Source: Saccostrea echinata
Lineage: Eukaryota
Direction: 5' to 3'
NCBI RefSeq assembly: GCF_033153115.1
Contig: NW_026889751.1
Coordinates: forward strand, 8,618,001 to 8,682,000
DNA: 64,000 bases
Part shown: positions 14,797 to 64,000 of the stretch, piece after piece
How positions within the stretch are numbered: position 1 is the first letter of the stretch
How the letters are laid out: each line of letters starts with the position of its first letter
The notes under the pieces: generated by a model
Told to the model about the DNA's origin: nothing
Databases searched by the model: none
The model's input: only the letters and a program-made list of their open reading frames with translations
Program-made: the position numbers and the translations under genes

Positions 14797-15127
14797 AACA
14801 AGAGGCCCACGGGCCTTATAGGTTACCTGAGTATGCCATGAGCCCTGCCCTAACACCAGAACCTTGACCCATGGGACATAAAATTCACAATTTTGGAAAA
14901 GGCACCCTTGCATATTATAACTATACTCTTAGTTCATCAGCTTAATACCCAGGAGAAAAGGACACGATTTTCAAAGAATTGTTGCATTTTTTACAATGTA
15001 ATCATTAGAGCTCCGCCCTAACACCAGAACCCCTGACCCAGGTGCCATGAAATTCACAATTTTGGAAGAGGCATCCTTACTCATCTTAACTGTGCATTCA
15101 GTTTGTTTGCTAAATACCCCGGATCAA

Positions 15128-15167
<40 letters not shown>

Positions 15168-15968
15168 ATTCAACAGAGCCCTGTCCCAACACCAGAGCCC
15201 CTGACCTGGGGCCATAAATTTCACAATTTTGGACGAGGCAACCTTATTCGTCATTACTATACTCATAGTTCATCGGTGAGAAAAAGAGAGGATTGTCAAA
15301 GAATTATTGCATTTTTACTATGTAATCATTAAAGCCCCACCCTAACACCAGAACCCCTGAGCCAGGGGCCATGAAATTCACAATTTCTGAGGAGCAGAGA
15401 AGAAGATTTTCAAAGAATTAATGCATTTTCACTATATAATCAATAGAGCCCCGCCCTAACACAAGAACCCTTGACCCTGGGGCCATGAAATTCAAAATTT
15501 TGGAAGAGGCACTCTTGCTCTTCATAACTATGTACTTAGTAAGTTTATTTAATACCCAGGAGCAGAGAAGATTTTCAAAGAAATAATGCACTTTCACTAT
15601 ATGATCTATATAGCCCCCCCCCCCAGCACCCCTGACCCTGGGGTCATGAATTTCACAATTTGGTAGAGGGCTCAATGCTTATTACAATCATGCCAAGAGT
15701 TTGACTGCTTGATGTCCAGGAGTAAAGAAGAAGATTTTTAAAGATTGCTTTAATTTTGATAGTTTAGCCCCACCCCTCAGGCCCCAGGGGGGTAGGGGTC
15801 ATGAATTTCACATTTTTACTCCCCTGCACCCATAGATGCTATATGCCAAATTTGGTTGAAATTGGTTCAGTGGTTCCAGAGAAGAAGCTGAAAATGTTCA
15901 AATGTTAATGCACGGCGGATGAAAACAGATAGCAATAGGTCACCTGAGTAAACTCAGGTGACCTAAAA
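14797..15968 (-). mobile_element. Helentron-associated non-autonomous element (HINE-like) carrying a ~165-bp tandem-repeat array
   Basis: One end is AACAAGAGGCCCACGGGCCT..GGTTACCTGAGT; the other is the hairpin TAGGTCACCTGAGT-AA-ACTCAGGTGACCTA. About six diverged units lie between (ACCAGAACCCCTGACCC..CATGAAATTCACAATTTTGGAAGAGG..AAGATTTT..GCATTTT). Confidence 0.85.
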
Positions 15969-17546: not shown

Positions 17547-17577
<31 letters not shown>

Positions 17578-17621
17578 TTATTATGCTCATGCATGCATGT
17601 GTACATGCAGACTTCCATCTC

Positions 17622-34400: not shown

Positions 34401-37400
34401 GACTTTACCAAGGGCCAGAGTTAGTGGGGGTGTGTCTAATTTCTCGTTTTCTTTTCGTGGAATGGATGCTGTTAGAGAGGCCATGCATAGTGTTTTCCTG
34501 TATCATGCAATCAAGGTATTGGGAATATTCTTAAAAGCTTGTTGTAGTCATAAAGTGTTGGAATTTTAGTGTTAGACTTGATAAAGAATTACACATTGAA
34601 AGATTTTGATTAACAATTACTTTAGTGATCTGAAACTTAACATCTCAAAGCCAAGGGAGAATACTCCTAATAAACACAGTTCATTGAAATCTTCATATTT
34701 CAATACAGTAAACATACATGAAATTACTTCGAACAAATTTATTCTAGTAGTTGAACATTATGCATCTGTGTCAATTTGGACTATGTGGAAAATTTTTCTT
34801 AATGTTCTGACACAGAACTGACACCATTTTCCTCACAGAGTGAATGTCTAACTACCAATAGTAAATTGTGATATTTGTTGAAGCCTCAGTTTTCATTAAT
34901 TATTTTTTGCCTCCTTATGATACATTTATATACAATGTTTTTAGAATGGAATGGACATGGGCATTGTCAATGCTGGATGTCTGCCAGTTTATGATGATAT
35001 TGAGCCCAAGCTTTTGGAACTCTGTGAAAATTTGCTGTGGAACAAAGATCCAGATGGGACAGAAAAATTGCTAGCATATGCTCAGGTAAAATTTTGTGAT
35101 TATACTTGGCTGAAAAGCATGTGTAAAGAGGTAATAAGTACAATGTATAGTAAGATGAAATACATGTAGTCAGCATAATTTCTAAGTTTATAATCATTCT
35201 GAAAATTCTGTGCATATATGAATTTTAGTCACTTATTTCCATGGCAAAGTAATCAGAGTTGTCAACTTCAGGTCTTCTTAAAAAATTATTTCAAGAGATT
35301 ATAGCAAAAATGATGATCTAAATGTATCTGCAGAGTATGGGAAAAGATGCAAAGAAGGCAGCAGTGAGTGACGAATGGAGGAACAAGAATGTGGAAGATA
35401 GACTTGAGTTCTCTCTTGTTAAGGTGACAAGACATTGTTTCTGTGTTAGATATCTAGTTCTGTCACTCGTCTTTTAGCCAGAATTAGAAACATTGTTACT
35501 TGTGTGAGCACATCTCCATGTCACCTTCAGTAGGTCATTTAAGCCAATTGATGCTTGTGTTCTGAGCTTCAGTTAAGATTATGTTTGAAAGTATATTTGT
35601 AGTCATGAATGATTCTTATTGTTGACAGGGAATAGACAAGTATGTCATAGAAGACACAGAAGAAGCCCGTCAGAACCAGGATTTGTACCCCCGACCCCTG
35701 AATGTCATCGAGGGACCGCTGATGAAGGGAATGAGTGTGGTGGGGGATCTCTTTGGGGCGGGGAAAATGTTTTTACCTCAGGTGATCAAATCAGCACGTG
35801 TCATGAAAAAAGCAGTGGGACATTTGATTCCCTTCATGGAAAAGGAAAAGGAGGAGAGAATGAAAAAGACTGGAGCTGTGGTGAGTTTTCATGCCACAAG
35901 AATTTACAGTTAAACCTTGTTATTTTGAACAAAGATATATCAATTACCGTATATATGTTGAATTGAGTTGGAAGTCCCAAACACGTTGCTCATGTATTTT
36001 AACCTCAATATCTCCAATCTTAGGTATCTTAAAGTTTTTTTTTCTTTAAACCCATTGAGTTAGAGAAGACAAGGTTTGGCTGTGTATAGATTGTATGTGG
36101 CATTATTTTGCTAGGTGTAAGGGAAACTATCCAAACATATGCAGTAGGCCTATCCACTTTGACTTGTATTTATTTTATCATGTATTAGAAATGGCCACTC
36201 TCAAACACAATCTTGTTTAATTATTTATCAAACACAATCATGTTTAATTATTATTCATTGACAGTCTCTGATAAAAGACTTTAAGCTTTTCCTATATTCT
36301 AAGATATGTTGTTTATCAGCAACTTTGGGAAGTTGACCTTTCCTTAGATTAAAAAAAATGTTTTTTCCCCATGAAGTGTTACAGTAATATACATTCTAGC
36401 ATTTCATTGTTTTGAATAGGAGAGTGGATATTCTGGAGTTATTGTCTTGGCAACAGTAAAAGGAGATGTCCATGACATTGGCAAGAATATTGTGGGAGTT
36501 GTTTTGGCTTGTAACAATTTCAAGTAAGTGTGTCTATTTTGCAGACAAATTGTTCCCTGAACATGATGTAAAATAAAAAAAAGTGTCATTGATGTGCATT
36601 AAATATGTGTTGGTATTTTATTTTTGTCATCAAGAGTCATAGATCTTGGAGTAATGACACCATGTGAGAAGATTCTTCAGACAGCCATGGAGGAAAATGC
36701 AGGTAAGGCTTATAAAAGGACTGTTATATCAATTATATATATGAATTAGGGATGGCAATTGAATACAGAATTGCTAATCGGTTAACCGCAAGAAGTTCCG
36801 ACCGATCAGTGCTCAACGGTGATTTGTTTAATATAATTTAAGAATTACAAGACAGTCGGGGTACAACTTAGTGTTTTAAAAAACAGAAATTAACAGTTCA
36901 TAAATTGACCAATTATACCCCGTGATCTCCATCCGGAGAACCATAATTACCTCCAAATAAGATTAAATAGATATGTGAAAAAAAACCTAAATTATCAACT
37001 TTTATGCAGAGGTTTCTTTTTAGGAATGAATTTAAGAAAATTGTGTTCAAATTTACATATATTTTATTTTTTTCTGACTAACCGATTACAGTTTTTCTAA
37101 CCGATTACCATCGTTCCAACCGAGTAATCGGTTAACCGGTTACAAATTGCCATCCCTAATATGAATATATGATACAGTCATACCTCATCTCAAACTCGAA
37201 GGGACCAAGAAAATACTTTGATATAACCAAGGATTCGAGATATCCAGGATAAAATACTTAAGGAATAATCAGTTGGGACTTCAAAATGACTTTGACATAC
37301 CCATGGTATTCGAGATATCCATGTTCGAGATACCGGAGTTCTTCTGTACATACAAAAACACATGTCTGTATTTATTTGATCTGCCCTGTGTTCTTAAAAT

Positions 37401-40400
37401 AATATTTGCTATGTTATGCCTTATGCAAAAAAAGGTAGGGTGAGTGGGATGGAGGAGATGTTCTTCTAGTACCTTGGAGTATGAAATTTGTTATCTAGTG
37501 ATGAAGTAAGGGATGATACCAGAACACAAGGTTTAATACTTAGGAAAGGGAAGCCTGATGAGAAAGTACATGTATCATTCCTTACCCAGTCAATTCATTT
37601 CCTGGTCATAAATTTTGTTGGAGAAATATTGGAAGTTACACTTAGTAAAAAAGTTGCATATGACTGGTGGATGTGTGTTGACTCTTAACCAAGGTCATTT
37701 GGACATGATCTTAAACTAATCACACTTTGAAAAGACTAAGGCTGAATAATCTTCAAAAGCCAAGTGATTCTACTCTGCTCCACTCATTTTTCTGATCTCC
37801 TGCACGCCTCACAAATCCTTGGGTTTTTGAGGAGTGGAACAAATCAGATATAGTTTGCTGCAGAGGATGACATGAAGTGGGAATTAGATAGGCAAGCTTG
37901 CAATTTGTGTTTTCTGAAACAAAATGTGCTTAAAAATCAATGGAAATACAGTTGAACTTCGGTATCTTGAACACGGATGTCTCAAATACCATGGATATCT
38001 TGAAGTGATAGGGAAGTCTTAACCACATATTTCTTTAGTATTTTACCCTAGATATCTCGAACCCTCGGATATCTCGAAGTTTTTTCTTTGTCCCATTGAG
38101 TTCAAGATAATGAGGTTTGACTATATGTTTAAAAATGAAAAAATTTAGAAGTTGACAAATTTTGTGACCTTTTTTGTATTTTATCACTTAGAATCAATAC
38201 TCATTTTGTAACAGGAGTGATAACAGATTTTTGGCTATGAACTATTACATAGTTCTGTGAGACACCCCAAAGTGGGGCCAAAAAGGGGTCTTAGCCTTTC
38301 TTGTCCTTGGTGTTCAAGTTTTTACAAGCAAAGCACTTGTGGGTGTGCCCTGTTTGGGGGGAGGGGGATTATGCCAATTAGAACAGTTCAACTTAGAATT
38401 GGTTGTTTCTTGTTATGAAAATCATTTTTAAAGTGGTAGTGGGGGTTTATGAGTTGTTACATATCGGCATCTTGACTTGTTTCAGACATCATTGGTTTGT
38501 CTGGACTAATCACACCCTCTCTGGATGAAATGATTTACGTTGCCAAGGAAATGGAGAGGATTGGAATGAAGGTCCCCCTTCTGATTGGTGGAGCCACCAC
38601 CTCAAAGTATGTATTGCCAAATACTCTTAAGAATACTGCATAATACCCGATAAAGAATAACCAATGATAAACAAATCTTACAAAGATTTTCCCAACTAAG
38701 AGTAGATCAGAATTGCAGATAAAAACCCACATTCCAACACCCTATCTTTAAAATGTGATGTTGTAGGAAAAAAATTCCTGAAGCTATTGAATTTAAAAAG
38801 TCAGTTTTAATACAAACATGCCTGTATGTTCTCTTGATCATTTTGTTAATTTAATAAATATTTACAAGTACACTAAAAATCATTCATTTCTTTACTGTAG
38901 GACCCACACAGCAGTTAAAATAGCCCCAAGATACAAGTCACCCACTATTCATGTACTGGATGCCTCCAAAAGTGTGGTGGTGGTGAGTTGAAAGATAGCG
39001 CATCATCTCTGTGTTGTTTTATTTCTATATACTGGTATTTGTTTTCGTTAAAATTTTTAGGTTTTTAGTTATGTTGCTTTAGTATAAAAAGAAAAAATGC
39101 CAGTCAAATCTTATGTACGGTAGTATATAAAAGTGGACAAAACATGGGAAAGAAATTATGTTTTCTGACAGATTAACTTAAAGATTTTTTGGCTATCTCT
39201 CATTTGTAATTACATTTACTCATGAATATAACTAATCGCAGATATACATGCATTTCATGTAAGTTCCCTAGAAATACATGATGTAGGTTTTTTTATGGAA
39301 ACCTTCTGTTATTAAAGAGTACAGCAGAGAGGAAAATGATTTAACCTTGTAAGTGTTACATGATGTCACTCTTTCTTTAAACAGTGTTCACAACTACTTG
39401 ATGAAGAAAATAAAGATGACTATGTAGAAGAAGTATCAGAGGATTATGAGGAAATCAGAACAGAACATTACAGCGGCCTTAAAGTAAGATACATGTAAAA
39501 TCAATTATAGGCTGCCTTACAGAACAAAATATAAAAACTATAATTAATGGAATGACAGTAATGAAAGTAAGAGCATGTTTCAAAGATCATAAATTTTAGT
39601 TGGTCCTAACTTTTTGCCTAATCAACTTTTATGGGGAAAAAGTCTTGTCAGAATCTTTAAATTTCAAATCAAAACACCACTGAAATTGATCTTGATTATA
39701 GAAAATCTTTAGATAGATTTTGGTATAGTTGTAGATCTTCTGTCAAAGAAAAACTTGATTGTAATTCAAGTATTAGATATATACACATACAAATCCAGTT
39801 CCAATTGGTTATCATTGTAGGACTTGTAGCACACATGGCATCAGAAAAAGAGGTTTAGGATACTATTAAAGGAAACTGCATTGACATTTGTATTATTTAG
39901 AAATGTAAATGCCTTGTTTCTTGTTTCAGGACAGGAAATATTTGTCAATTGAAAAGGCCAGAGAAAAGAAACTTTCTATAGACTGGACTTTATCTCCACC
40001 AGGTATGTTAAGTTTGTTTGTTTTTGCTTTTTGTTTGTTTGTTTGTTTTGGTCCAGAAACTTAATTTTAAAAACATTGGAAACACGAAACCCAATTTTAA
40101 CAAATAAAAATATTCAAGTGAATGAAAACCTGATCCTCAAAACAGAACCAGGATTTCATACATGTAGTTTACTACATTGTTGTCCTACATAAATATGCCT
40201 CACATGTCTACAAAATGTGGTCCAAGAAACTTGTTTATTGCATATATTAATATTCATCTCCCCAGAAAAAGATAGCAATATGTTTAGGTTGTATATAAAA
40301 CTGGACTTCAATATTCTCCCTATTTAGCACCACAACCGACTGTCATAGGCGTTAAAACCTATGAGAATTATGACCTATCTCGTTTGATTCCATACATCGA

Positions 40401-43400
40401 CTGGAAACCTTTCTTTGATGTATGGCAGCTCAGAGGAAAATACCCCAACAGAGGTTATCCCAAGATATTCAAGGACAAAACAGTGGGTAAGGTCTTTAAC
40501 ATAGGTCTTTTAAAACCATAACCAATGTATTGAATTTATTGATATTTCATTTGATAAGATATTCCTTCTATAGATCAATATTTCATCCTTTCTGAAAATA
40601 AATTATTGGCTGCTAGAACATGCATGGTTAGCTCTATCATGTTTGAAATAAGATTTTTGACTTTGAAATGACAGGACCAGAGGCCAAGAGAGTTTACAAT
40701 GATGCCCAGAACTTGCTCAAAACCATCACCACCACAAATAAGCTGCAGGCACATGGCGTGGTGGCGTTCTACCCTGCCAACAGTGTGGGCGATGACATAG
40801 AGGTTTATAATGAGGACGGAGAAGTGATAGAGGTCCTTCATGGACTCAGACAACAGGTATAATTACCAGTACATTTTTTGGGCACTTTTTTCCAAGGAAA
40901 GAAGAGTTAATGATTTTTATGTTCATTTGCACATGCATGTAAATATGTTCAGAGGTAACTTTTGGTCAGGGAGTGATTATACAATGTATTTTTTGTTACT
41001 GTCATTTCCATGTGGAGTCACATTTTTAAAATGTACATTTATCTGTTTTTCAATTATTTGTTACTAAGTAAATTTTTCTTATTTTTTAATTTCAATTTCA
41101 GGCAGAAAAGGAAGCCATGGACAAATCTCCATATTTATGTTTATCAGACTTCATAGCTCCTAAGAGTTCTGGCAAGAAAGATTACATTGGTTTGTTTGCA
41201 GTAACTGCTGGTCATGGTGTGGATAAAATGTGCAAAATGTTAGTACTACAAAATATTTATTGCAAGAGTAGATTAATGAATTTTTGATTTGTTAGAGCAC
41301 TTATGAGTTGTTATCCTATCTTAGATATGAAGAGAAGTTTGATGACTATGGAATTATCATGGTTAAAGCATTGGCTGACAGACTTGCAGAGGTAATGTGC
41401 CATTGAGTTTAGTTTCGTATCATGATGAATGCATTTTAAAAAGAAAAAATTGTGGCACATGAAGTGTTACATTTTACATACAGTTAAACCACATTATCCA
41501 AAACATGAAGGGGTTGATAAAAATTGAGAAATATGAGGATTTAGATAAACAGGTTTAAATACATAAAGAAAATGCGTTTGGGACTTCTAATTCAATTCAA
41601 CATATCCAAGGTATCCAATGTATTTGAAGTATTGATGTCTGAGATAACAAAGTTCAAATGTATTACATTTTGTTTATATAGGCATTTGCAGAGGAGTTAC
41701 ATGAGAGAGTGCGGAAAGAGATTTGGGGCTATGCTTGTGAAGAGGTTTTAGAAGCCAATGATCTACATAAAATTAAATACCAGGTAAAGTATTGTTTTGT
41801 AGACTACATTAGCTGTCTATTTTAGTTTTTTTTATTAATAGTGTCTGGGGTGTTCATCCTTCAGTATGTTTGTAACACTTGGGGGTACCCATCTATTATC
41901 CACAAGTACTCCTATACCACTGAGTAAAATTTAATGAAACTTTCACAGTATCTTTATTACTTAGTGCAATTGTGCACCTCCTATTTTTTGTTTTGATTGG
42001 ACAGATATTTTGGGTTTGCCTTAGCAAAATATAGAGACTACCATTCTTTCTATAACATGGGGGGTACCCATCTCTTATCCGCAACTCAATTCTATGCCAC
42101 TGAATAGATTTTAATGAAATTTTCAGAATCTTTATAACATAGTGCCATTGTACACCTCTATTTTCATATTCAGATATTTGAGGTTTCCCTTGGGAAAAAC
42201 TGGACCTTGTCTTTGTACTTATATGGGAGCAGGGGATGTCATTTTGTGAGCTCAGTGCTCACTGTACCTCTAGTTCACATGACTATGATAATGACAATTC
42301 TATTCTAGAAACTTACTGGGAATTCAAAACATTGAATATTTCTACAGCATTCGTCCTTTTAAGTAGTTGCCAATATGTTTTTTCATGACTTTATGGGCCT
42401 GTACATTTTATTTGAAATTTTAGCATTGAATTAAATGAATACTTAATAACAGGGAATTCGACCAGCACCTGGTTACCCTAGCCAGCCAGATCATACAGAA
42501 AAGGAAGTGATGTGGCGCCTCCTTAAGGCTGAGAAAGTGGGAATAACTCTAACAGAATCCTTAGCAATGTTCCCTGCAGCTTCTGTGTCAGGATTATACT
42601 TTGCTCACCCAAAGTCAGAGTATTTTGCAACTGGAAAGTTACAGAGGGACCAGGTGAGTTAAGTGGTCTCTTGTTAAATCACACTATTAACCACACTACA
42701 AATTGAAAAGGTTGAAATATTGGATGATAGAATTTTTTTGGTTTTCACTATTTTACAACAAAGATCAAATTATATAAAAAGCTATATTAAAGCTGACATG
42801 AATTCTTAAAAACGCAACATTTGCATCAATGTACGACTTGTTTCAAACCAACTATTCCGCCATATTTCTTTCAGATACATGTACCTTGTCTTGTTGTAAC
42901 GATATATACCCCGATGCCCTCGTTACACTTGAGTGAATTTTTGGTTCGGCTATCGACGCGTGCACATCTCCGATAGTAAAGTATTTGGGAACACATGAAT
43001 TGATAAAAAAAATTTAAAACCAGAACAGATAAAAACAGTCATAACGATAATTAGTCCCCTACCGGTGAAACCGGAGGGGACTATAGGTTTCCTCTGAGTC
43101 TGTCCGTCCGTCTGTCTGTCTGTCTGTCCGTCTGTCTGTCTGTCTGTCTGTCTGTCCCTCTGTCTGTCTGTCAGTCTGTCCCACTTGGTTTTCCGCACTT
43201 TTTTCCTAAACGCTTGCAGATATTGAGCTGATTTTTGGTATGTGAGTGTATCTTGATGAGTTACAGATCAAGTTTGCATTTCGTTCCGCTTCATTGATTT
43301 TTGACGGAATTACGGCCTTTTCAATTTTTTCGGGTTTTCCGCAATTTTCTTCTAAAAGCTTGTAGATATTGAGCTGATTTTTGGTATGTGGCTTTACCTT

Positions 43401-44295
43401 GATTAGTTACAGATCAAGTTTGCATTTCGTCCCGCTTCATTAATTTTTGACGGAATTATGGCATTTTCAATTCTTAACGGGAACGGAACCAGATTACACT
43501 TGCCGGTAGGGGACTAGTATTGCTAATGCAATACTCTCAGAATGCTTGTTATGAATAATTATCGTTTTGAATAACATAAATGCAAGTTTGGAAGAAAAAA
43601 ACATAGTTGCGCGTGTTTTTTAAAAGCATACCAATATATGCATAATAAACTTGAAATAAAACACAGTAAAACTCGTACAAACAATTTGCAATAATCTATC
43701 GTAAGAATGGAACAAACCACCACTCCACCAGCGTATTTCCTATGCATGTCCATATGCATTCAAATACAATTGATGCATATCGAGAGAACACGTCGAACAC
43801 CGTAAACTTATTCATACCTGAAAATAGACCACTGTGCCCGTTCGAAGATGTGCACATGCCGAATAATTTACACCTTGTATTCCATTTATTGAAATATGCA
43901 TCAAAAAGTAATAAACTCCATAAATACTCAACAGTAAACACGTTGTCACTTCATCGTACAGCCTTGCACTCGAATACGCTTAGTCCGTGCTGGTCAGATT
44001 TTGGTCAGGGAAAATATCAAAAGTAAAAAAGGGAATTAGTATTTGCCCAACTGGTTAAAAAATAAGACATCACTAAAAAAAAGTCTGATTGCTGATTATA
44101 AAAAACTAAACTGAGTAATTTGGTGTAAAAAAAAATGATTTAGAACACGACATGAGAGCATTTAACCAGAACACAATTAACAAATATACACATATGTGGG
44201 GGGGGGGGGGGGATACTCCCTTTTCTCAGAGTGTCTTTCAGGCACATAGCATCTAAGAAATAATTGACATTTTACCTGAAAAATCTTTGACAAGC

Positions 44296-51201: not shown

Positions 51202-54200
51202 ATGGAACGCAGGCATTTCCTGCCCTATGTATTGGGTATTATTGTATTAGGTTTACTAGAATTCTCCATCAGTGCCAGTGAGTACTATTTATATCGGTAC
51301 AAGGTAATCACTTAGAGTGAAGGAAACAGGAAAAATTAATTTCACTCTCTTACAAATTTCATCAAATTAGATTCATGTGAAAAAGAAACATTTAAAAACA
51401 TTTCTCTTTTACAAAATAGTTTGCTAGCCTGTAAACTTTCAATGTCTTCGCATGTAATGGTTTTGTCATTAAAAACTTTAAAAAGAAAATAAATAACCAG
51501 CAGAGCCTCAATAGGAAAAAAATCTGATGACAATTTCATGGTATCTTTTCTTAATTTCCACGTAAAACGTCAAAAGGTAATGTTTTCCCTTTTTGTAAGT
51601 AGGAATAAGGAATTCGGTAATGTGTCTGATGCAGATGATTTTTAAAACTTCCTATATTATTTTTTCATTCATTGTTTACAATGTTCTCAATGAAATTTAA
51701 AAAAAAATAATAATGATAAATAAGTAAAATAAAATAACAAAAATAAAAATCTTGCAATAAAAGTTTTGTTTTCTTTTCAGACTGAAAATATAACAAAACG
51801 GAAATTATCATAATTTTGCACATTTTCCAAAAAAAAAAATGCTGATCAATCTGTTCCATATTCAATATTTACTAAACCACGATACAGTAATAGAAGGTTG
51901 CAAAACAAAATGGGTCTCAAAGGTTTGGCATCTGAATGTATAAATCTGTATTTATGTACATGTATAAAGAAAGTACCGCCTTTTACAGATGAGTGCAAAT
52001 ATGAGGAAAAAATGCTCTCTTGTGAAAGCAGGAGAATACAGACAAGTAGTGGTCGAGAAAAGGAGATCAGAAAGCTTTGCAGACTGAATGTCCCAAAAGA
52101 AATAAAAGATTTAAAAATCAAACTTGTGAAGCAGGATAGTGTTTCCAAACCATGCATATATCAAAAGTCGTTCCGTCTGGTCAAGAAGAAGGGTATTAGA
52201 CATTTGGAAGTTCGTAATGGGTGTCGAGGAAAATTCAAGATCCGATATCGCAGGAAAAGTATGATTTCTTAATGTTCTTTTACCCGTCCTCGTTTATAAA
52301 GACTTTTCCCCAAACAGTTTCACATTCATTTCTTGACATTCATGTTTTATTTAGGTTTATTTTCTCAAAAGATTTTTGTAAAATTCCTTGCAACACAGAT
52401 TGCTCCAGAAAATGCGGCCCCAATGCTTTTTGGAAGAAGAGACGAAGAGGCAGAAGAGGCAAATGTCGATGTAAGAGAGGTTATCGTGGAAATCCAAAGA
52501 AGGGAGGATGTACTGGTAAGGTGATTTGTCCGAGCCCTGAATATTACAACTCTGTTAAAACAATTTTTTAAGAAACGACTAAATGAGAATACAAAAAGAA
52601 AATAAGCAACAAATAAGCAACAAACTAATAAAATTAACAAAAGATGGGCCCAGTTGCACTTTTCCCTCCGCTGTGCAATTTTGAAAAACCTCAATGGGAC
52701 ATGAACATGAATCACGAACATAACGACAACCCCTTCTATGTGAAAAATTAATATATTTGTAGAAATAAGTTGACGGAATTTAAAGAAAGATCTTGGATCC
52801 TGTTAAATATGACCCAAATCCATCTTTCTGTACAAATTTTTTCAGCTTCTTGTGTATGCCGAGCTTCTGGAGACCCACACTATTCTACATATGACGGTCA
52901 GAAAATCCACTTCATGGGCACTTGCAAGTACACGCTGACAAGAACATTGGGAAAGCAACCCTGTGCCTTTAACATCATGGTGTACAACGAAAGACGAAAC
53001 AACAAGAAATCAGTGTCCTATACCAAACAAGTGGATGTGGAAATTGGCAACAACAGAGTTTCACTATTCAAAGGCAAGATATCCCAGGTAGGAACCTTCA
53101 TGCACATCATTCTTCTTGTGAGTGGTGTTGCCATGGCCAAATACTAGTATGCGATGAAAACATGTATGATACATGGGTACTTTTTTGTTGGAGGGATTGT
53201 CTGATGACAAATGGAACTTGATTGTACCTGTTGGATTTGTAGGTCAATGAAAGAAATGTAAACATCACACAAATGCCCTTTGAAAAAGATGGCATTTTGT
53301 TGACGACTGTAGGGCGCCGTTTCGTCAAACTTCAATCACCATCTTGTGGATTGACCGTGCTTTGGGATGGCAAGCATTCTGTGGAAGTTTCTGCCGACAA
53401 GGGTAAGTACGGCGGCAAAATGACTGGAATCTGTGGGGACTGCAATGGAAAGAGAGATGACTTCCGCTTGGCCAATGGAACAAATGTATCACGATTGCCA
53501 GCAAAGGAAAAGTACAGAGAAATCGGAGATAGTTATCGCGTGACAGATGCAAAGAGTCCTATATCTGCGTGAGTACGACGTTTAACGTGGTCCGACAGTC
53601 AAGTTGCGTTCCCTGTATCGTTTGCACGTGCTATGAAATATCCATGAAAATTGTAAGAGTTGTTGATTTTCAGATGTGGTCCTACACCGGCATTTTCAAG
53701 TTGCACTCCGGAACAGACAAAGAGATTCAGTTCCAATGAAGCTTGTGGATTGATGGAGAGTACATCCGACGAAAATCCATTCAAGGAATGCGTCAAATGG
53801 ATGAAAACGACTAAAGATGCGGACGGAAACAGTCCATTTTCTTCTTGTCTTATTGATGCATGCAACAACGACGGAGCGAAGTTGAAGACAGTGACCTGCC
53901 CCGCGCTGGAGGAATTCGAAGAAATATGTGTAGAGAATGGCTACGCCCCACCAGAGGATAATATCTGGCGAAACATCACTTCCTGTTGTGAGCATTTGTA
54001 TTTCATACATGTATTTCTCATTGCCTGAAACTTTACTTTTAACTTCATAAGGGACTAACCCCGATTAATATCTTTTGAGTTGATTTCAATTGCTTCAAGA
54101 AATAATAATCGTAAGCATTTATTTAAAGCATTGGCAGAGGTTGAAAAATGCCATAAAAATGAGGAGTACGTAGAAGATGGAAGTGGATGTCCCAACACAT

Positions 54201-57200
54201 GCCTGTCCCCAAAGGCGGAAGAAACCTGTTCTGATCCTGATGTTGCAGGGTGTCAGTGTAAGAAAGGTTTTGTGAGAGATGGAGATATCTGCATACCTGT
54301 CAGTCAATGTGGATGCACTCTACTGAAGAAACGCGTTCCTGTACGGCATTACACTATTGTTTTCTTAAGCGATAAAACTTTTATTTGGAGGCAATAAAAA
54401 TTGATTTTACGCAAGTCTTTTTTACTTTAAAAAAAATCTTTTCTGTTTTGGATGTTAAAAATAGTTTTGAGAAATGAAGAAAAACCTGAACCCGAGAACA
54501 GTAATTTGATAAGGATAAAGAAACATTAAATACTTTAGATATTTAGAATAATTTGATTCTATCTGTAGGTTCATAAAATAACACGTTCTCGATATTGTAG
54601 GTAAATTCGAGCATACTTTCAGTAGACTGCAAACAGAGAATTTCATGCACTCTGAGGAACGGTGTTCCAAAAGTTATAGAAGAACCAGCAAAGTGTAGAA
54701 CTGACGAAATATGTCTGAATCTAAAAGGAAGAGGGGAATGTAAAAAAGGTAGTCTATATTCAACGGATTTTTTTCTGCTAAGAATTCGTTTAACGTAATT
54801 TCATTAGGCTATTGATGATCTCGTAAACGGAATAATAAATAAAGCCTTAAAATTAGAAACTTAAAAGTTGTAGTTTATGTGTATTTGGAGTTCAGGGTTA
54901 CCACATTTATCTTTATGTAATAACCAGATGAACGTTTTATTTTCATTTGTTGCTAAATTTAAAACTAAACACAGTTTACAGACACGATACAGATAATTCC
55001 TATTTGAAAATTAGAAAAAAAGTTTTTATTGAAAAAAAGCTACAAACCTGATGGGTTACAATTTTGTTAATTGTAAATATGAATTTCACAGCCCCAGCCA
55101 TCGTCGCTGAAGCACCCATTCCTCCTCCTAAAGCTAGCTCACCTGAAACTGGCCGTAAGTAATTTTATCATAACCGAGGTACAAAATTGATAGAGAAAGT
55201 TACAATCACACGAAATGTTGTGGACTAGCTTGAATCGTTAAAATAAACTTGGAACTAATATTTNNNNNNNNNNNNNNNNNNNNNNNNNNNNNNNNNNNNN
55301 NNNNNNNNNNNNNNNNNNNNNNNNNNNNNNNNNNNNNNNNNNNNNNNNNNNNNNNNNNNNNNNNNNNNNNNNNNNNNNNNNNNNNNNNNNNNNNNNNNNT
55401 TTTTTGGGGGGGGGGATCTACTTTTTATTTTACAAAACATAAAAAGTAGGGCATCAATATTCTATGTAAGTTAGGTAACGATATAATTTTATTGAATGAG
55501 ATGGCAATTGCCGGTAGATTGAATGAATAATAAATATTTCGATGCAGGTAAATGTAAAAAAGAGAAAAAGGTTGTGAGATGTGCAAGCCGTAGATTACAA
55601 CTCAGTAGTGGTCGACAGAAGGAGATCAAGAAGCTTTGTAGACTGGGGAATACCAGAGAAATTGAAGACGTCAGAGTCCAACTGGTCAAGCAAGATAAAG
55701 TGTCTAAACCTTGCATCAACAAAAAGTCGTTTCGCTTACTCAAGAGGAAAGGGAGATGGCATTTGGAAGTTCGCAATGGTTGTCGAGGGAAATTCAAGAT
55801 CCGATATCGCAGGAAAAGTAAGATTTCAAATAAGTTTATTTCTCATTCTCAGAGAATTTGATTTCCTATATTAATTCCCATGTTAAGTACATTGTTACTG
55901 AGCTTGTCGTAAGATATATGATCCTTTGTTTACGACGTAGATTGCTCCAGAAAATGCGGTCCCAATGCTGTTTGGAAGAAGAGACGAAGAGGCAGAGGAG
56001 GCAAATGTCGATGCAAGAGAGGTTATCGTGGAAATCCAAAGAAGGGAGGATGTACTGGTAAGATGATTTGTGAGTCTTGAAACTTACAATACGATGGAAA
56101 CAGTTTTTGAAAAAATATGACCAAAATCTATAAACCAAAACAAACTAACAAAAAAAAAATCATTTAAAAAAACAACAGCATAAAAAGTTCCCATTTTTCA
56201 TGTGCTAATGAAACTTACATACCGATACTTGTACATGAATTTAGTTGGTAATCTTGACAACTCCTCTTTATTTGCAAATTGATACATTTGTGGGGGAAAA
56301 AGTTGACAATATGTTGAGGAACTTGTCAAGATGAAATAATGGATTTTGGATATTGATGACCATGATCCAAATCCCATCTCTCTGTCCAATTCTCTTTCAG
56401 CTTCTTGTGTATGCCGAGCTTCTGGAGACCCACACTATTCTACATATGACGGTCAGAAAATCCACTTCATGGGCACTTGCAAGTACACGCTGACAAGAAC
56501 ATTGGGAAAGCAACCCTGTGCCTTTAACATCATGGTGTACAACGAAAGACGAAACAACAAGAAATCAGTGTCCTATACCAAACAAGTGGATGTGGAAATT
56601 GGCAACAACAGAGTTTCACTATTCAAAGGCAAGATATCCCAGGTAGGAACCTTCATGCACATCATTCTTCTTGTGAGTGGTGTTGCCATGGCCAAATACT
56701 AGTATGCGATGAAAACATGTATGATACATGGGTACTTTTTTGTTGGAGGGATTGTCTGATGACAAATGGAACTTGATTGTACCTGTTGGATTTGTAGGTC
56801 AATGAAAGAAATGTAAACATCACACAAATGCCCTTTGAAAAAGATGGCATTTTGTTGACGACTGTAGGGCGCCGTTTCGTCAAACTTCAATCACCATCTT
56901 GTGGATTGACCGTGCTTTGGGATGGCAAGCATTCTGTGGAAGTTTCTGCCGACAAGGGTAAGTACGGCGGCAAAATGACTGGAATCTGTGGGGACTGCAA
57001 TGGAAAGAGAGATGACTTCCGCTTGGCCAATGGAACAAATGTATCACGATTGCCAGCAAAGGAAAAGTACAGAGAAATCGGAGATAGTTATCGCGTGACA
57101 GATGCAAAGAGTCCTATATCTGCGTGAGTACGACGTTTAACGTGGTCCGACAGTCAAGTTGCGTTCCCTGTATCGTTTGCACGTGCTATGAAATATCCAT

Positions 57201-60200
57201 GAAAATTGTAAGAGTTGTTGATTTTCAGATGTGGTCCTACACCGGCATTTTCAAGTTGCACTCCGGAACAGACAAAGAGATTCAGTTCCAATGAAGCTTG
57301 TGGATTGATGGAGAGTACATCCGACGAAAATCCATTCAAGGAATGCGTCAAATGGATGAAAACGACTAAAGATGCGGACGGAAACAGTCCATTTTCTTCT
57401 TGTCTTATTGATGCATGCAACAACGACGGAGCGAAGTTGAAGACAGTGACCTGCCCCGCGCTGGAGGAATTCGAAGAAATATGTGTAGAGAATGGCTACG
57501 CCCCACCAGAGGATAATATCTGGCGAAACATCACTTCCTGTTGTGAGCATTTGTATTTCATACATGTATTTCTAATTGCCTGAAACTTTACTTTTAACTT
57601 CATAAGGGACTAACCCCGATTAATATCTTTTGAGTTGATTTCAATTGCTTCAAGAAATAATAATCGTAAGCATTTATTTAAAGCATTGGCAGAGGTTGAA
57701 AAATGCCATAAAAATGAGGAGTACGTAGAAGATGGAAGTGGATGTCCCAACACATGCCTGTCCCCAAAGGCGGAAGAAACCTGTTCTGATCCTGATGTTG
57801 CAGGGTGTCAGTGTAAGAAAGGTTTTGTGAGAGATGGAGATATCTGCATACCTGTCAGTCAATGTGGATGCACTCTACTGAAGAAACGCGTTCCTGTACG
57901 GCATTACACTATTGTTTTCTTAAGCGATAAAACTTTTATTTGGAGGCAATAAAAATTGATTTTACGCAAGTCTTTTTTACTTTAAAAAAAATCTTTTCTG
58001 TTTTGGATGTTAAAAATAGTTTTGAGAAATGAAGAAAAACCTGAACCCGAGAACAGTAATTTGATAAGGATAAAGAAACATTAAATACTTTAGATATTTA
58101 GAATAATTTGATTCTATCTGTAGGTTCATAAAATAACACGTTCTCGATATTGTAGGTAAATTCGAGCATACTTTCAGTAGACTGCAAACAGAGAATTTCA
58201 TGCACTCTGAGGAACGGTGTTCCAAAAGTTATAGAAGAACCAGCAAAGTGTAGAACTGACGAAATATGTCTGAATCTAAAAGGAAGAGGGGAATGTAAAA
58301 AAGGTAGTCTATATTCAACGGATTTTTTTCTGCTAAGAATTCGTTTAACGTAATTTCATTAGGCTATTGATGATCTCGTAAACGGAATAATAAATAAAGC
58401 CTTAAAATTAGAAACTTAAAAGTTGTAGTTTATGTGTATTTGGAGTTCAGGGTTACCACATTTATCTTTATGTAATAACCAGATGAACGTTTTATTTTCA
58501 TTTGTTGCTAAATTTAAAACTAAACACAGTTTACAGACACGATACAGATAATTCCTATTTGAAAATTAGAAAAAAAGTTTTTATTGAAAAAAAGCTACAA
58601 ACCTGATGGGTTACAATTTTGTTAATTGTAAATATGAATTTCACAGCCCCAGCCATCGTCGCTGAAGCACCCATTCCTCCTCCTAAAGCTAGCTCACCTG
58701 AAACTGGCCGTAAGTAATTTTATCATAACCGAGGTACAAAATTGATAGAGAAAGTTACAATCACACGAAATGTTGTGGACTAGCTTGAATCGTTAAAATA
58801 AACTTGGAACTAATATTTNNNNNNNNNNNNNNNNNNNNNNNNNNNNNNNNNNNNNNNNNNNNNNNNNNNNNNNNNNNNNNNNNNNNNNNNNNNNNNNNNN
58901 NNNNNNNNNNNNNNNNNNNNNNNNNNNNNNNNNNNNNNNNNNNNNNNNNNAAGTGACTTTTTTGGGGGGGGGGGGGATCTACTTTTTATTTTACAAAACA
59001 TAAAAAGTAGGGCATCAATATTCTATGTAAGTTAGGTAACGATATAATTTTATTGAATGAGATGGCAATTGCCGGTAGATTGAATGAATAATAAATATTT
59101 CGATGCAGGTAAATGTAAAAAAGAGAAAAAGGTTGTGAGATGTGCAAGCCGTAGATTACAACTCAGTAGTGGTCGACAGAAGGAGATCAAGAAGCTTTGT
59201 AGACTGGGGAATACCAGAGAAATTGAAGACGTCAGAGTCCAACTGGTCAAGCAAGATAAAGTGTCTAAACCTTGCATCAACAAAAAGTCGTTTCGCTTAC
59301 TCAAGAGGAAAGGGAGATGGCATTTGGAAGTTCGCAATGGTTGTCGAGGGAAATTCAAGATCCGATATCGCAGGAAAAGTAAGATTTCAAATAAGTTTAT
59401 TTCTCATTCTCAGAGAATTTGATTTCCTATATTAATTCCCATGTTAAGTACATTGTTACTGAGCTTGTCGTAAGATATATGATCCTTTGTTTACGACGTA
59501 GATTGCTCCAGAAAATGCGGTCCCAATGCTGTTTGGAAGAAGAGACGAAGAGGCAGAGGAGGCAAATGTCGATGCAAGAGAGGTTATCGTGGAAATCCAA
59601 AGAAGGGAGGATGTACTGGTAAGATGATTTGTGAGTCTTGAAACTTACAATACGATGGAAACAGTTTTTGAAAAAATATGACCAAAATCTATAAACCAAA
59701 ACAAACTAACAAAAAAAAAATCATTTAAAAAAACAACAGCATAAAAAGTTCCCATTTTTCATGTGCTAATGAAACTTACATACCGATACTTGTACATGAA
59801 TTTAGTTGGTAATCTTGACAACTCCTCTTTATTTGCAAATTGATACATTTGTGGGGGAAAAAGTTGACAATATGTTGAGGAACTTGTCAAGATGAAATAA
59901 TGGATTTTGGATATTGATGACCATGATCCAAATCCCATCTCTCTGTCCAATTCTCTTTCAGCTTCTTGTGTATGCCGAGCTTCTGGAGACCCACACTATT
60001 CTACATATGACGGTCAGAAAATCCACTTCATGGGCACTTGCAAGTACACGCTGACAAGAACATTGGGAAAGCAACCCTGTGCCTTTAACATCATGGTGTA
60101 CAACGAAAGACGAAACAACAAGAAATCAGTGTCCTATACCAAACAAGTGGATGTGGAAATTGGCAACAACAGAGTTTCACTATTCAAAGGCAAGATATCC

Positions 60201-63200
60201 CAGGTAGGAACCTTCATGCACATCATTCTTCTTGTGAGTGGTGTTGCCATGGCCAAATACTAGTATGCGATGAAAACATGTATGATACATGGGTACTTTT
60301 TTGTTGGAGGGATTGTCTGATGACAAATGGAACTTGATTGTACCTGTTGGATTTGTAGGTCAATGAAAGAAATGTAAACATCACACAAATGCCCTTTGAA
60401 AAAGATGGCATTTTGTTGACGACTGTAGGGCGCCGTTTCGTCAAACTTCAATCACCATCTTGTGGATTGACCGTGCTTTGGGATGGCAAGCATTCTGTGG
60501 AAGTTTCTGCCGACAAGGGTAAGTACGGCGGCAAAATGACTGGAATCTGTGGGGACTGCAATGGAAAGAGAGATGACTTCCGCTTGGCCAATGGAACAAA
60601 TGTATCACGATTGCCAGCAAAGGAAAAGTACAGAGAAATCGGAGATAGTTATCGCGTGACAGATGCAAAGAGTCCTATATCTGCGTGAGTACGACGTTTA
60701 ACGTGGTCCGACAGACAAGTTGCGTTCCCTGTATCGTTTGCACGTGCTATGAAATATCCATGAAAATTGTAAGAGTTGTTGATTTTCAGATGTGGTCCTA
60801 CACCGGCATTTTCAAGTTGCACTCCGGAACAGACAAAGAGATTCAGTTCCAATGAAGCTTGTGGATTGATGGAGAGTACATCCGACGAAAATCCATTCAA
60901 GGAATGCGTCAAATGGATGAAAACGACTAAAGATGCGGACGGAAACAGTCCATTTTCTTCTTGTCTTATTGATGCATGCAACAACGACGGAGCGAAGTTG
61001 AAGACAGTGACCTGCCCCGCGCTGGAGGAATTCGAAGAAATATGTGTAGAGAATGGCTACGCCCCACCAGAGGATAATATCTGGCGAAACATCACTTCCT
61101 GTTGTGAGCATTTGTATTTCATACATGTATTTCTCATTGCCTGAAACTTTACTTTTAACTTCATAAGGGACTAACCCCGATTAATATCTTTTGAGTTGAT
61201 TTCAATTGCTTCAAGAAATAATAATCGTAAGCATTTATTTAAAGCATTGGCAGAGGTTGAAAAATGCCATAAAAATGAGGAGTACGTAGAAGATGGAAGT
61301 GGATGTCCCAACACATGCCTGTCCCCAAAGGCGGAAGAAACCTGTTCTGATCCTGATGTTGTCAGTGTAAGAAAGGTTTTGTGAGAGATGGAGATATCTG
61401 CATACCTGTCAGTCAATGTGGATGCACTCTACTGAAGAAACGCGTTCCTGTACGGCATTACACTATTGTTTTCTTAAGCGATAAAACTTTTATTTGGAGG
61501 CAATAAAAATTGATTTTACGCAAGTCTTTTTTACTTTAAAAAAAATCTTTTCTGTTTTGGATGTTAAAAATAGTTTTGAGAAATGAAGAAAAACCTGAAC
61601 CCGAGAACAGTAATTTGATAAGGATAAAGAAACATTAAATACTTTAGATATTTAGAATAATTTGATTCTATCTGTAGGTTCATAAAATAACACGTTCTCG
61701 ATATTGTAGGTAAATTCGAGCATACTTTCAGTAGACTGCAAACAGAGAATTTCATGCACTCTGAGGAACGGTGTTCCAAAAGTTATAGAAGAACCAGCAA
61801 AGTGTAGAACTGACGAAATATGTCTGAATCTAAAAGGAAGAGGGGAATGTAAAAAAGGTAGTCTATATTCAACGGATTTTTTTCTGCTAAGAATTCGTTT
61901 AACGTAATTTCATTAGGCTATTGATGATCTCGTAAACGGAATAATAAATAAAGCCTTAAAATTAGAAACTTAAAAGTTGTAGTTTATGTGTATTTGGAGT
62001 TCAGGGTTACCACATTTATCTTTATGTAATAACCAGATGAACGTTTTATTTTCATTTGTTGCTAAATTTAAAACTAAACACAGTTTACAGACACGATACA
62101 GATAATTCCTATTTGAAAATTAGAAAAAAAGTTTTTATTGAAAAAAAGCTACAAACCTGATGGGTTACAATTTTGTTAATTGTAAATATGAATTTCACAG
62201 CCCCAGCCATCGTCGCTGAAGCACCCATTCCTCCTCCTAAAGCTAGCTCACCTGAAACTGGCCGTAAGTAATTTTATCATAACCGAGGTACAAAATTGAT
62301 AGAGAAAGTTACAATCACACGAAATGTTGTGGACTAGCTTGAATCGTTAAAATAAACTTGGAACTAATATTTNNNNNNNNNNNNNNNNNNNNNNNNNNNN
62401 NNNNNNNNNNNNNNNNNNNNNNNNNNNNNNNNNNNNNNNNNNNNNNNNNNNNNNNNNNNNNNNNNNNNNNNNNNNNNNNNNNNNNNNNNNNNNNNNNNNN
62501 NNNAAGTGACTTTTTTTGGGGGGGGGGGGGGGATCTACTTTTTATTTTACAAAACATAAAAAGTAGGGCATCAATATTCTATGTAAGTTAGGTAACGATA
62601 TAATTTTATTGAATGAGATGGCAATTGCCGGTAGATTGAATGAATAATAAATATTTCGATGCAGGTAAATGTAAAAAAGAGAAAAAGGTTGTGAGATGTG
62701 CAAGCCGTAGATTACAACTCAGTAGTGGTCGACAGAAGGAGATCAAGAAGCTTTGTAGACTGGGGAATACCAGAGAAATTGAAGACGTCAGAGTCCAACT
62801 GGTCAAGCAAGATAAAGTGTCTAAACCTTGCATCAACAAAAAGTCGTTTCGCTTACTCAAGAGGAAAGGGAGATGGCATTTGGAAGTTCGCAATGGTTGT
62901 CGAGGGAAATTCAAGATCCGATATCGCAGGAAAAGTAAGATTTCAAATAAGTTTATTTCTCATTCTCAGAGAATTTGATTTCCTATATTAATTCCCATGT
63001 TAAGTACATTGTTACTGAGCTTGTCGTAAGATATATGATCCTTTGTTTACGACGTAGATTGCTCCAGAAAATGCGGTCCCAATGCTGTTTGGAAGAAGAG
63101 ACGAAGAGGCAGAGGAGGCAAATGTCGATGCAAGAGAGGTTATCGTGGAAATCCAAAGAAGGGAGGATGTACTGGTAAGATGATTTGTGAGTCTTGAAAC

Positions 63201-64000
63201 TTACAATACGATGGAAACAGTTTTTGAAAAAATATGACCAAAATCTATAAACCAAAACAAACTAACAAAAAAAAAATCATTTAAAAAAACAACAGCATAA
63301 AAAGTTCCCATTTTTCATGTGCTAATGAAACTTACATACCGATACTTGTACATGAATTTAGTTGGTAATCTTGACAACTCCTCTTTATTTGCAAATTGAT
63401 ACATTTGTGGGGGAAAAAGTTGACAATATGTTGAGGAACTTGTCAAGATGAAATAATGGATTTTGGATATTGATGACCATGATCCAAATCCCATCTCTCT
63501 GTCCAATTCTCTTTCAGCTTCTTGTGTATGCCGAGCTTCTGGAGACCCACACTATTCTACATATGACGGTCAGAAAATCCACTTCATGGGCACTTGCAAG
63601 TACACGCTGACAAGAACATTGGGAAAGCAACCCTGTGCCTTTAACATCATGGTGTACAACGAAAGACGAAACAACAAGAAATCAGTGTCCTATACCAAAC
63701 AAGTGGATGTGGAAATTGGCAACAACAGAGTTTCACTATTCAAAGGCAAGATATCCCAGGTAGGAACCTTCATGCACATCATTCTTCTTGTGAGTGGTGT
63801 TGCCATGGCCAAATACTAGTATGCGATGAAAACATGTATGATACATGGGTACTTTTTTGTTGGAGGGATTGTCTGATGACAAATGGAACTTGATTGTACC
63901 TGTTGGATTTGTAGGTCAATGAAAGAAATGTAAACATCACACAAATGCCCTTTGAAAAAGATGGCATTTTGTTGACGACTGTAGGGCGCCGTTTCGTCAA
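51202..64000 (+). CDS. Secreted zonadhesin/FCGBP-like multi-repeat VWD-C8-TIL protein with lectin-like and EGF-like modules (3' end beyond the window)
   Basis: TATATAAG at ~51162. Signal-peptide exon 51202-51277 (MERRHFLPYVLGIIVLGLLEFSISA). Cassette 1 exons: 51989-52258, 52399-52515, 52846-53087 (ASGDPHYSTYDG), 53243-53568 (GICGDCNG), 53674-53987 (C8-like), 54129-54340 (TIL), 54601-54748 (TILa-like), 55092-55154 (Pro-rich). Cassettes 2, 3 and 4 start at 55548, 59109 and 62665. Intron phases are compatible throughout, but cassette 3 has a 7-bp deletion. Confidence 0.85.
52841..64000 (+). repeat. Near-identical ~3.56-kb tandem repeat (3 full periods plus the start of a fourth)
   Basis: The GDPH exon starts at 52846, 56401, 59962 and 63518 (periods 3555, 3561, 3556). 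The ORF track shows identical peptides, and introns are also near-identical. Confidence 0.98.

Follow-up and report, generated by a model that had tools for sequence, protein, structure and literature searches.

The 64,000-nucleotide window analysed here (G000:C2:8618001-8682000 of the 923-Mb Saccostrea echinata genome) contains the start of a large gene whose second coding exon, at 51989-52258 on the forward strand, had been read in a preliminary description as a DUF3011 domain, akin to the Aplysia egg lectin ADEL, fused into a VWD protein. The exon is confirmed as coding for a lysine/arginine (K/R)-rich DUF3011-like domain, and it is the diverged first of ten copies in the gene. It is bounded by AG at 51987-8 and GT at 52259-60, in phase 1 at both ends; because it begins in phase 1, frame 1 of 51989-52258 is closed and the reading starts at 51991 (+). 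Read from there, the exon yields the residues originally quoted for it (LSCES, IKLVKQDSVSKPCIYQKSFRL and LEVRNGCRGKFKIRY) as well as the K/R richness ascribed to it (33% K/R, net charge +19), with five cysteines and zero tryptophan.

The fusion to a VWD protein is likewise borne out by an in-frame splice, with a leader upstream and EGF-like, VWD, C8, TIL and E modules downstream. The leader, the eight exons of unit 1 and the DUF exon of unit 2 join into 679 codons with 0 stops and with GT/AG at every internal junction, so that the DUF3011-like domain of unit 1 is predicted to form the N-terminus of the mature protein. The features of this part of the gene, all on the forward strand, are as follows.

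51202..51277, +, first coding exon: 76 nt, ATG and a 25-residue hydrophobic leader (signal peptide by eye), phase-1 donor GTGAGT
51989..52258, +, DUF3011-like exon of unit 1: 270 nt, 89 full codons, 5 Cys, net +19
52399..52515, +, K/R-rich EGF-like exon with five Cys, the third EGF Cys being Trp (by eye, no Pfam match)
52846..53568, +, VWD domain (Pfam) in two exons, 52846-53087 and 53243-53568, with GDPH at 52869
53674..53987, +, C8 domain exon (Pfam)
54129..54340, +, TIL domain exon (Pfam)
54601..54748, +, E/TILa-like Cys-rich exon: no Pfam match alone; the corresponding part of the C. virginica orthologue aligns to FCGBP
55092..55154, +, Pro/Ala-rich linker exon of 21 codons, phase 1-1
55548..55817, +, DUF3011-like exon of unit 2: net +26, Pfam E 0.0035, identical across units 2-9
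59109..59378, +, DUF3011-like exon of unit 3, a repeat of the array
61349..61371, +, 7-bp deletion in the unit-3 TIL exon: frameshift, not in units 1, 2 and 4-9
62665..62934, +, DUF3011-like exon of unit 4, a repeat of the array
51989..64000, continuing past the window, +, tandem array of ten units of ~3.55 kb, 564 codons per unit

Each unit is built in the order DUF3011-like, EGF-like, VWD (GDPH), C8, TIL, E-like and Pro-rich linker. An annotated protein, P0001 ('IgGFc-binding protein-like [Saccostrea echinata]'), matches the repeat units letter for letter, and NCBI models cover the array piecewise (P0001 and P0009, 'partial'). After unit 10 the gene proceeds through an EGF module, a VWD assembly, short Pro/Thr-rich exons, 13 EGF-like exons and a last VWD assembly to a 92-residue C-terminal domain (G000:C2:8723944-8724219, L015:1944-2219), ending near G000:C2:8724219 with a rough total of ~7,200 codons. 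The C-terminal domain has no Pfam match at E 0.01, and an ESM Atlas search with its counterpart in P0050 gave no usable match. GDPH is present in 10 of the 12 VWD domains, namely in all ten unit VWDs and in neither of the last two.

Any two of units 2-9 are separated by 0-8 substitutions and 0-2 indels over 2,760 bp including introns, and by at least one event in every case. Comparison of unit 1 with unit 2 shows zero mismatches from ~52,890 to 53,300 and 7-29 per 100 bases before that, and the unit-1 DUF exon, with 75% nucleotide identity and 70% amino acid identity against units 2-9, is therefore an edge copy outside the homogenised tract. The sharp edge of array homogenisation in unit 1 lies at 52789-52890 of the window, near the acceptor of the first VWD exon. 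When the DUF exons of units 1, 2 and 10 are compared, the ratio of non-synonymous to synonymous substitution (dN/dS) is 0.14, 0.10 and 0.14, indicating purifying selection. The TIL and E exons together measure 360 nt in phase 1-1, and skipping of both would preserve the frame.

Homology of the exon to DUF3011

The exon very probably encodes a divergent DUF3011 homologue, better called DUF3011-like than a formal member, and the homology is borne out by Pfam, phmmer, hhalign, consensus columns and a leave-clade-out profile. In Pfam, DUF3011 (PF11218) is the sole family match to the exon (E 0.0084), at 16.5 bits against a gathering cut-off of 25, so that the assignment stands as the only candidate without reaching formal membership. 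The unit-2 copy scores 17.7 bits (E 0.0035) and that of unit 10 16.6 bits. DUF3011 is found at E 0.0005-0.027 in four of the five related single-domain sequences scanned (P0003, P0006, P0007 and unit 10), the fifth, P0004, giving no DUF3011 match in the Pfam scan. A phmmer search with the unit-2 exon against 1.84 billion representative proteins returned 7 matches, five of the same K/R-rich kind and one, P0008 (E 2.5e-4), a four-repeat protein that Pfam assigns to DUF3011 at E 1.8e-53. A bird low-complexity protein among the seven (P0005) was dropped as spurious, being repetitive and having no Pfam match.

When the 21 rows of alignment A4 that lie outside the K/R-rich clade are made into a profile, the exon scores 32.6 bits against it and the reversed exon sequence 0.1, a comparison that favours the match in that the columns were aligned with the K/R clade present and some rows came from a profile including the clade. 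The best of 1000 shuffles reaches 12.8 bits with this profile, and 0 of 1000 reach the score of the exon. Alignment by hhalign of nine K/R-clade rows with the four canonical DUF3011 exons of the S. echinata genome gives a probability of 76% (E 2.2e-5), falling to 47% when the clade is set against P0008 alone.

The exon was also compared over 22 consensus columns with 49 reference repeats, of which 39 are bacterial-type (a class judged by reading), 6 are from oysters and 4 from P0033; the 39 were chosen by a pattern that demands four Cys and itself fixes seven of the 22 columns. Sixteen columns match exactly and 4 conservatively; the remaining 2 carry the changes G to R and W to E. The four-cysteine core is present, since C11, C30, C55 and C78 align with the four invariant cysteines of the reference repeats, and so are both the L-x-[RK]-Q-x-S and V-x-x-G-C-x-[GA]-x-F motifs, as LVKQDS and VRNGCRGKF. 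The fit to L-Q-S, C-x4-S-F and G-C-R-G-x-F originally described for the exon thus stands at the level of motifs and falls short at that of the Pfam gathering score. The glycine after the S/T-aromatic pair, which is G in 37 of the 49 reference repeats and R in 7, is replaced by R62. Throughout the K/R clade, C-E/A-S, L-V-K-Q and G-C-R-G-x-F are retained.

AlphaFold2 models the exon with a mean predicted local distance difference test score (pLDDT) of 68.7 alone and of 92.8 with a 31-row DUF3011 alignment; the alignment-based model is all-beta with eight strands, and relative to DUF3011 the domain has two inserted K/R-bearing hairpins. Sequence searches of the Protein Data Bank (PDB) with the exon, the DUF3011 protein P0040 or the alignment profile found no solved relative, an NCBIfam search with the DUF3011-like domain returned nothing, and the ESM Atlas held no usable match for the unit-2 domain in P0001. 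A Foldseek comparison of a predicted model, proposed in the preliminary description as a check, gave no clear fold match: the single-sequence model reaches a best E of 0.62 (best VIA Z 5.8), and the alignment-based model a best E of 0.37, to Helix pomatia agglutinin (HPA). VIA places the latter model closest to the C-terminal domains of phage depolymerases (Z 6.0, root-mean-square deviation (r.m.s.d.) 3.0, 67 aligned), followed by discoidin I (Z 5.3, r.m.s.d. 3.4, 78 aligned) and HPA (Z 4.5). These are common beta-sandwich scores, and a link to H-type lectins through HPA is not claimed. In a tree of 58 domains over 69 columns the K/R clade holds together (100/99) but its origin is not placed, so no horizontal transfer is claimed.

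DUF3011 as a mobile exon in bivalves

The gene is not peculiar to S. echinata. The C. virginica protein P0100 has the same order of parts, its tail tracks that of the S. echinata gene exon by exon and its C-terminal domain is 85% identical. S. cucullata P0002 and C. gigas P0069 contain the unit or its DUF-EGF-VWD junction; the unit is repeated in P0002, as it is along consecutive models of C. virginica. Pinctada P0059 shows the DUF-EGF-VWD arrangement of the S. echinata gene (by eye, and itself a row of A4), and Mytilus P0183, which lies outside the alignment, carries a DUF3011-like copy at E 5e-6.

A DUF3011 profile search with 26 matches further revealed a second oyster family of the form WSC(n)-EGF-VWD-C8-TIL-EGF-DUF3011-kringle-kringle-C-terminal domain (P0041, P0042, P0044 and P0050), WSC-DUF-kringle proteins (P0045, P0048 and P0051) and a predicted membrane protein (P0037); precomputed Pfam labels omit DUF3011 in every VWD protein among these 26 matches. 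In the S. echinata genome itself, C9 carries three DUF3011 exons that exceed the cut-off and C29 one that does not; the junction script puts three of the four in phase 1-1, and by eye the fourth appears to be in phase 1-1 too. DUF3011 is thus a mobile exon and not a one-off fusion. The C9 exons (L019-L021, G000:C9:45.63-45.80 Mb) mark a cluster of cationic WSC/VWD-DUF3011-kringle genes, and the C29 exon (L022, G000:C29:33.91 Mb) belongs to a predicted membrane protein resembling P0037, with two DUF3011-like repeats and a long inner tail.

The second oyster family resembles the S. echinata gene in its phase 1-1 DUF3011 exon within a VWD protein (the protein names are automatic), its cationic N-terminal part and its homologous C-terminal domain. 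It differs in having just one DUF3011 domain, which is of canonical type (IWV/VWV, net +1 to +9) and lies on the C-terminal side of the VWD assembly. Five of the six canonical oyster exons have six cysteines, the additional two lying one at either end; of these, the K/R-clade and Pinctada domains have the N-terminal one but not the C-terminal one. In the EGF-like module that follows the DUF domain, the third Cys is absent in the S. echinata gene, C. virginica, C. gigas and Pinctada.

The C-terminal domain occurs more widely: 20 of the proteins compared, oyster and mussel ones among them, match the C. virginica version at E 1.6e-4 or better. The domain, of ~90 residues with six spaced Cys, is also seen at L024, L025, L026 and L027 and at the C-termini of P0050, P0051, P0154 and P0183. 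The last of these (Mytilus edulis, 3570 residues, 25.7% K/R, net +679; P0182 is grouped with it) contains FAMeT, VWD, TIL and EGF modules by Pfam and SUEL-, WSC- and kringle-like parts by eye, besides its DUF3011-like copy and the shared C-terminal domain, a module set that resembles that of the sea-star protein Sfp1. FAMeT may be sea-star-specific among adhesives, as suggested in PMC9382459.

Tryptophan, charge and ligand

The exon has glutamate (E73, in LEV) where the family usually has the aromatic residue of IWV, as first described, and this substitution, though unusual, lies within family variation. The position is W in 39 of the 49 reference repeats, E in 4, Y in 3 and R in 3; the four with E are all from P0008, a canonical DUF3011 protein whose four repeats all read [VI]EV. 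A tryptophan three residues earlier, in an inserted hairpin, is present in six of the seven K/R-clade rows, unit 1 alone being without it. Charge and loss of Trp are separable: the repeats of P0033 carry +7 to +19 and keep [IV]WV, and the Pinctada domain, which shares the DUF-EGF-VWD arrangement, has no Trp there at a net charge of +2. P0033 (ENA), with four tandem K/R-rich DUF3011 repeats that keep Trp, is a natural comparison protein for ligand work.

The positive charge is a family-wide trait of the slot before VWD and is not special to the DUF3011-like domain. In 8 of 11 family proteins the 130 residues preceding the first VWD carry +23 to +36, irrespective of the module that stands there; in the remaining three the values are +13 twice (one a truncated model) and 0 in Pinctada. 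In relatives the slot before EGF-VWD is occupied by WSC modules or by a SUEL-type lectin (by eye), again cationic. Within the repeat unit of P0001 (net +44) most of the charge is carried by the DUF (+26) and EGF-like (+13) modules, with C8 and TIL acidic, and the EGF-like exon after the unit-1 DUF exon has 35% K/R.

The preliminary description had set a polyanionic ligand against a galactoside as the family baseline, and the latter is not borne out: AKL, the characterised Aplysia lectin of this family, is inhibited by galacturonic acid at 0.013 mM and by xylose at 6.25 mM, and galactose has no effect at 100 mM (PMC5484111). ADEL is termed galacturonic-acid-binding in the same paper. Because AKL binds galacturonic acid, an anionic ligand is the family baseline, and its binding by the S. 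echinata domain would continue the habit of the family.

Comparison with known systems

The S. echinata domain shares with the PF11218 lectins AKL and ADEL the four-Cys core and the L-x-[KR]-Q-x-S, C-x4-S-F and V-x-x-G-C-R-G-x-F motifs (PMC5484111), and the AKL peptide ACT(I/L)GESFGYQK fits the C-x4-S-F stretch (PMC5484111). AKL, in contrast, is a stand-alone lectin of 218-219 residues with three adjacent repeats (PMC5484111), whereas the S. echinata gene has one domain per 564-residue unit and ten per chain, with VWD assemblies between them, and its domain differs by two inserted hairpins, the W to E and G to R changes and a net charge of +19 to +26. Sugar binding by the AKL/ADEL egg lectins is Ca-independent. 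The likeness to AKL and ADEL, neither of which was among the matches of the protein searches, is drawn from family motifs and published description.

FCGBP carries an N-terminal IgGFc-binding domain, which is missing here: the S. echinata leader exon splices directly to the DUF3011-like exon, and the FCGBP N-terminal domain has no Pfam match in the scanned exons or in the C. virginica orthologue. Gel-forming mucins possess long proline/threonine/serine (PTS) domains and a C-terminal cystine knot, unlike the S. echinata gene, which shows only short Pro/Thr-rich exons and a C-terminal domain without Pfam match. The best solved relatives of the repeat unit are FCGBP chains (E 1.9e-194), and both proteins have tandem VWD-C8-TIL-E assemblies, most of them with GDPH (11 of 13 in FCGBP, PMC10880436; 10 of 12 in the S. 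echinata gene). The cationic DUF3011-like/EGF-like head, the Pro-rich linker between assemblies, the EGF array and the unnamed C-terminal domain set the gene apart from FCGBP. The VWD domains of FCGBP cleave themselves at GDPH, for which Asp and His are required and by which the domain is stabilised (PMC10880436), and the cleaved pieces are reported to remain joined by disulfides (PMC8267560).

Among adhesive proteins, Sfp1 of sea stars and Mlig-ap1 of flatworms are likewise very large and Cys-rich and combine lectin, VWD, C8, TIL and EGF modules (PMC9382459, PMC6410801). The S. echinata gene has this modular set, with the lectin role of its module presumed and the likeness to these gland-made proteins drawn from gene sequence. 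It departs from them in that its lectin-like module is DUF3011 and not SUEL, discoidin or C-type, and in that its charge is placed on folded modules in every unit. Sfp1 cleaves itself and is the cohesive scaffold of the sea-star footprint (PMC9382459); Mlig-ap1, likewise a cohesive glue protein, combines K/R-rich regions with lectin, VWD and EGF modules, and attachment is blocked by heparin (PMC6410801).

Zonadhesin/IgGFc-like proteins are reported from limpet adhesive mucus (PMC7333891) and quagga-mussel footprints (PMC12993968). In C. gigas, the 'IgGFc-binding protein (zonadhesin-like)' models CGI_10010553-57, five in a row, are pediveliger-specific; three of them combine VWD, TIL and EGF, and another has seven EGF (PMC6337334). 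Their order fits a single gene of the S. echinata type in fragments, and the accessible portion of that paper mentions no DUF3011 domain. No link to the S. echinata gene could be made for K1PRD3, which the two competent-larva sheets of PMC4527670 list as an 'IgGFc-binding protein'. The oyster larval foot has gland cells rich in acidic polysaccharides beside the byssus duct (PMC6193008).

Proposed function and alternatives

We propose that the gene encodes a secreted scaffold of the FCGBP/Sfp1 type whose ten cationic lectin-like heads bind acidic polysaccharides, a reading to which we give a probability of roughly 0.55. Its use in a larval adhesive is possible at somewhat less than even odds, the larval foot adhesive or mucus being plausibly the site of use. 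The protein of ~7,200 residues, predicted to be secreted, would cleave itself at GDPH into disulfide-linked pieces, as in FCGBP and Sfp1. The spare N-terminal Cys of the DUF domain would pair with the spare first Cys of the next EGF-like module (a putative bond), giving a stapled two-module cationic head of net about +36 to +39; alternatively, the spare DUF and EGF cysteines would be free for inter-chain bonds. The heads would bind anionic sugars (uronates or sulfates) with avidity from ten copies per chain, and by cross-linking acidic polysaccharides the protein would form a gel or fibre with a role at larval settlement.

Several observations weigh against this scaffold. Units 1, 2 and 10 all miss the Pfam gathering score of 25 bits; the K/R-clade-only profile meets canonical DUF3011 repeats at a best domain E of 0.12 (Z = 20,000), which is not significant, and the leave-clade-out profile was tilted towards a match in the manner described above. 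The G to R change after S-F and the W to E change are the strongest non-conservative ones and fall in well-kept columns; because of them and of the lack of Trp in unit 1, the specific sugar site may be lost in the unit-1 domain. Charge, moreover, is not needed for DUF-VWD fusion, since the Pinctada domain is near neutral. Unit 3 is frameshifted in the present assembly by the 7-bp deletion in its TIL exon. As to larval use, orthology with CGI_10010553-57 is suggested by architecture only, and two supplementary files of the C. gigas footprint proteome contain no zonadhesin/IgGFc name or matching id.

Some of these observations would be accommodated if the DUF3011 fold had been kept while its specific sugar site was lost, the domain serving as a K/R carrier by plain electrostatics (coacervation with polyanions, or contact with silica, biofilm or acidic proteins). 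The two substitutions at conserved columns, the absence of Trp from unit 1, the two inserted K/R hairpins and the charge found before VWD in 8 of 11 proteins regardless of module are all consistent with such a carrier, and in Mlig-ap1 low-complexity K/R tracts serve the same end (PMC6410801). However, C-E/A-S, L-V-K-Q and G-C-R-G-x-F are kept across the clade, dN/dS is about 0.1-0.14 and [VI]EV occurs in a canonical DUF3011 protein, and we regard the carrier as rather unlikely. The resemblance to DUF3011 could also be due to chance, or the array could be an assembly artefact or a dead gene, in line with the sub-threshold Pfam score, with the 0-8 substitutions that separate units 2-9 and with the one frameshifted unit. 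This is very improbable, given several independent positive tests of homology, at least one difference between any two of units 2-9, repeated units also in S. cucullata P0002 and in consecutive C. virginica models, and a dN/dS of about 0.1. An error in the exact number of copies is conceivable and would leave the domain assignment as it is.

Other sites of use deserve weighing as well. FCGBP is the closest solved relative, IgGFc-binding proteins are reported in C. virginica mucus (cited in PMC6337334) and AKL-40 is described in a review as antibacterial and antifungal, all of which would suit a protein of general use in adult mucus (pallial or gut), comparable to FCGBP, with cationic heads that trap or agglutinate bacteria or food particles. 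We consider this unlikely: the FCGBP N-terminal domain is absent, units 2-9 are near-identical and not diversified, and in adult organs the architecture-matched C. gigas models, if orthologous, reach <20% of their pediveliger expression (PMC6337334). A role in the egg coat, in gamete recognition or in shell or periostracum matrix would recall AKL, an egg-mass lectin (PMC5484111), and the database name 'zonadhesin-like' carried by relatives. It is improbable, since such names reflect likeness in VWD, the C. virginica orthologue shows neither a MAM nor a transmembrane segment, and the units are homogenised and under purifying selection, not fast-diverging.

With the scaffold reading as its base, a bolder proposal can be put forward tentatively, and with the odds clearly against it: that the gene encodes the main cohesive protein of oyster larval glue. 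The product would be a self-cleaving VWD polymer some 7,000 residues long, whose ten heads, each a DUF3011 and an EGF module stapled by a disulfide, would attach to acidic polysaccharides from the glands of the foot. It would belong to an undescribed cationic mosaic family of oysters, pearl oysters and mussels, which shares the unnamed C-terminal domain and in which exon shuffling would have exchanged glycan-binding modules (DUF3011, WSC, SUEL) in the position ahead of VWD.

Proteins that combine lectin and VWD modules are already known. In PMC5484111, PMC8878817 and PMC13027682, DUF3011 is treated as a stand-alone lectin or bacterial domain, and the term 'von Willebrand' is absent from the accessible text of PMC5484111. 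The accessible text of PMC6368781, PMC5549309, PMC9957406 and PMC12817120 has nothing on this family. DUF3011 as a shuffled module of lectin-VWD mosaics, and its cationic ten-fold array, appear to be undescribed in the searchable literature, outside which lie subscription papers including that on ADEL. The function of DUF3011 is known only from stand-alone sea-hare egg lectins, and a shuffled bivalve exon widens the family: in phase 1-1, it has been inserted into VWD, kringle, WSC and membrane proteins and escapes standard annotation. The domain, small and confidently modelled, is suited to a first DUF3011 structure and a ligand screen. The protein component of oyster larval cement has proved hard to reach by proteomics (PMC6193008, PMC6337334), and a K/R-rich giant that is fragmented by annotation and would be cut very finely by trypsin, as reported for Mlig-ap1 (PMC6410801), is a testable cement candidate, of relevance to spat settlement in aquaculture, to fouling and to wet adhesives.

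Neighbouring genes and repeats

Directly upstream of the array gene lies a gene for cobalamin-dependent methionine synthase (28700-41850 of the window, +; Pfam S-methyl_trans, Pterin_bind, B12-binding_2 and Met_synt_B12), useful as a synteny marker, and directly downstream, from L015:5990 onward, a Dak1-domain gene (dihydroxyacetone kinase/TKFC-like). A cluster of ML-domain (NPC2-like) exons, four on the forward strand and one on the reverse, occupies 5236-18170 of the window, with duplicated segments ~6.4 kb apart upstream of ML exons (636-1125 and 7002-7553). Short degenerate tandem repeats of ~150-170 bp at 14819-15571 and 43187-43475 and a dispersed repeat family of ~75-120 bp between 21.7 and 48.1 kb are likely ordinary satellite or transposon remnants.

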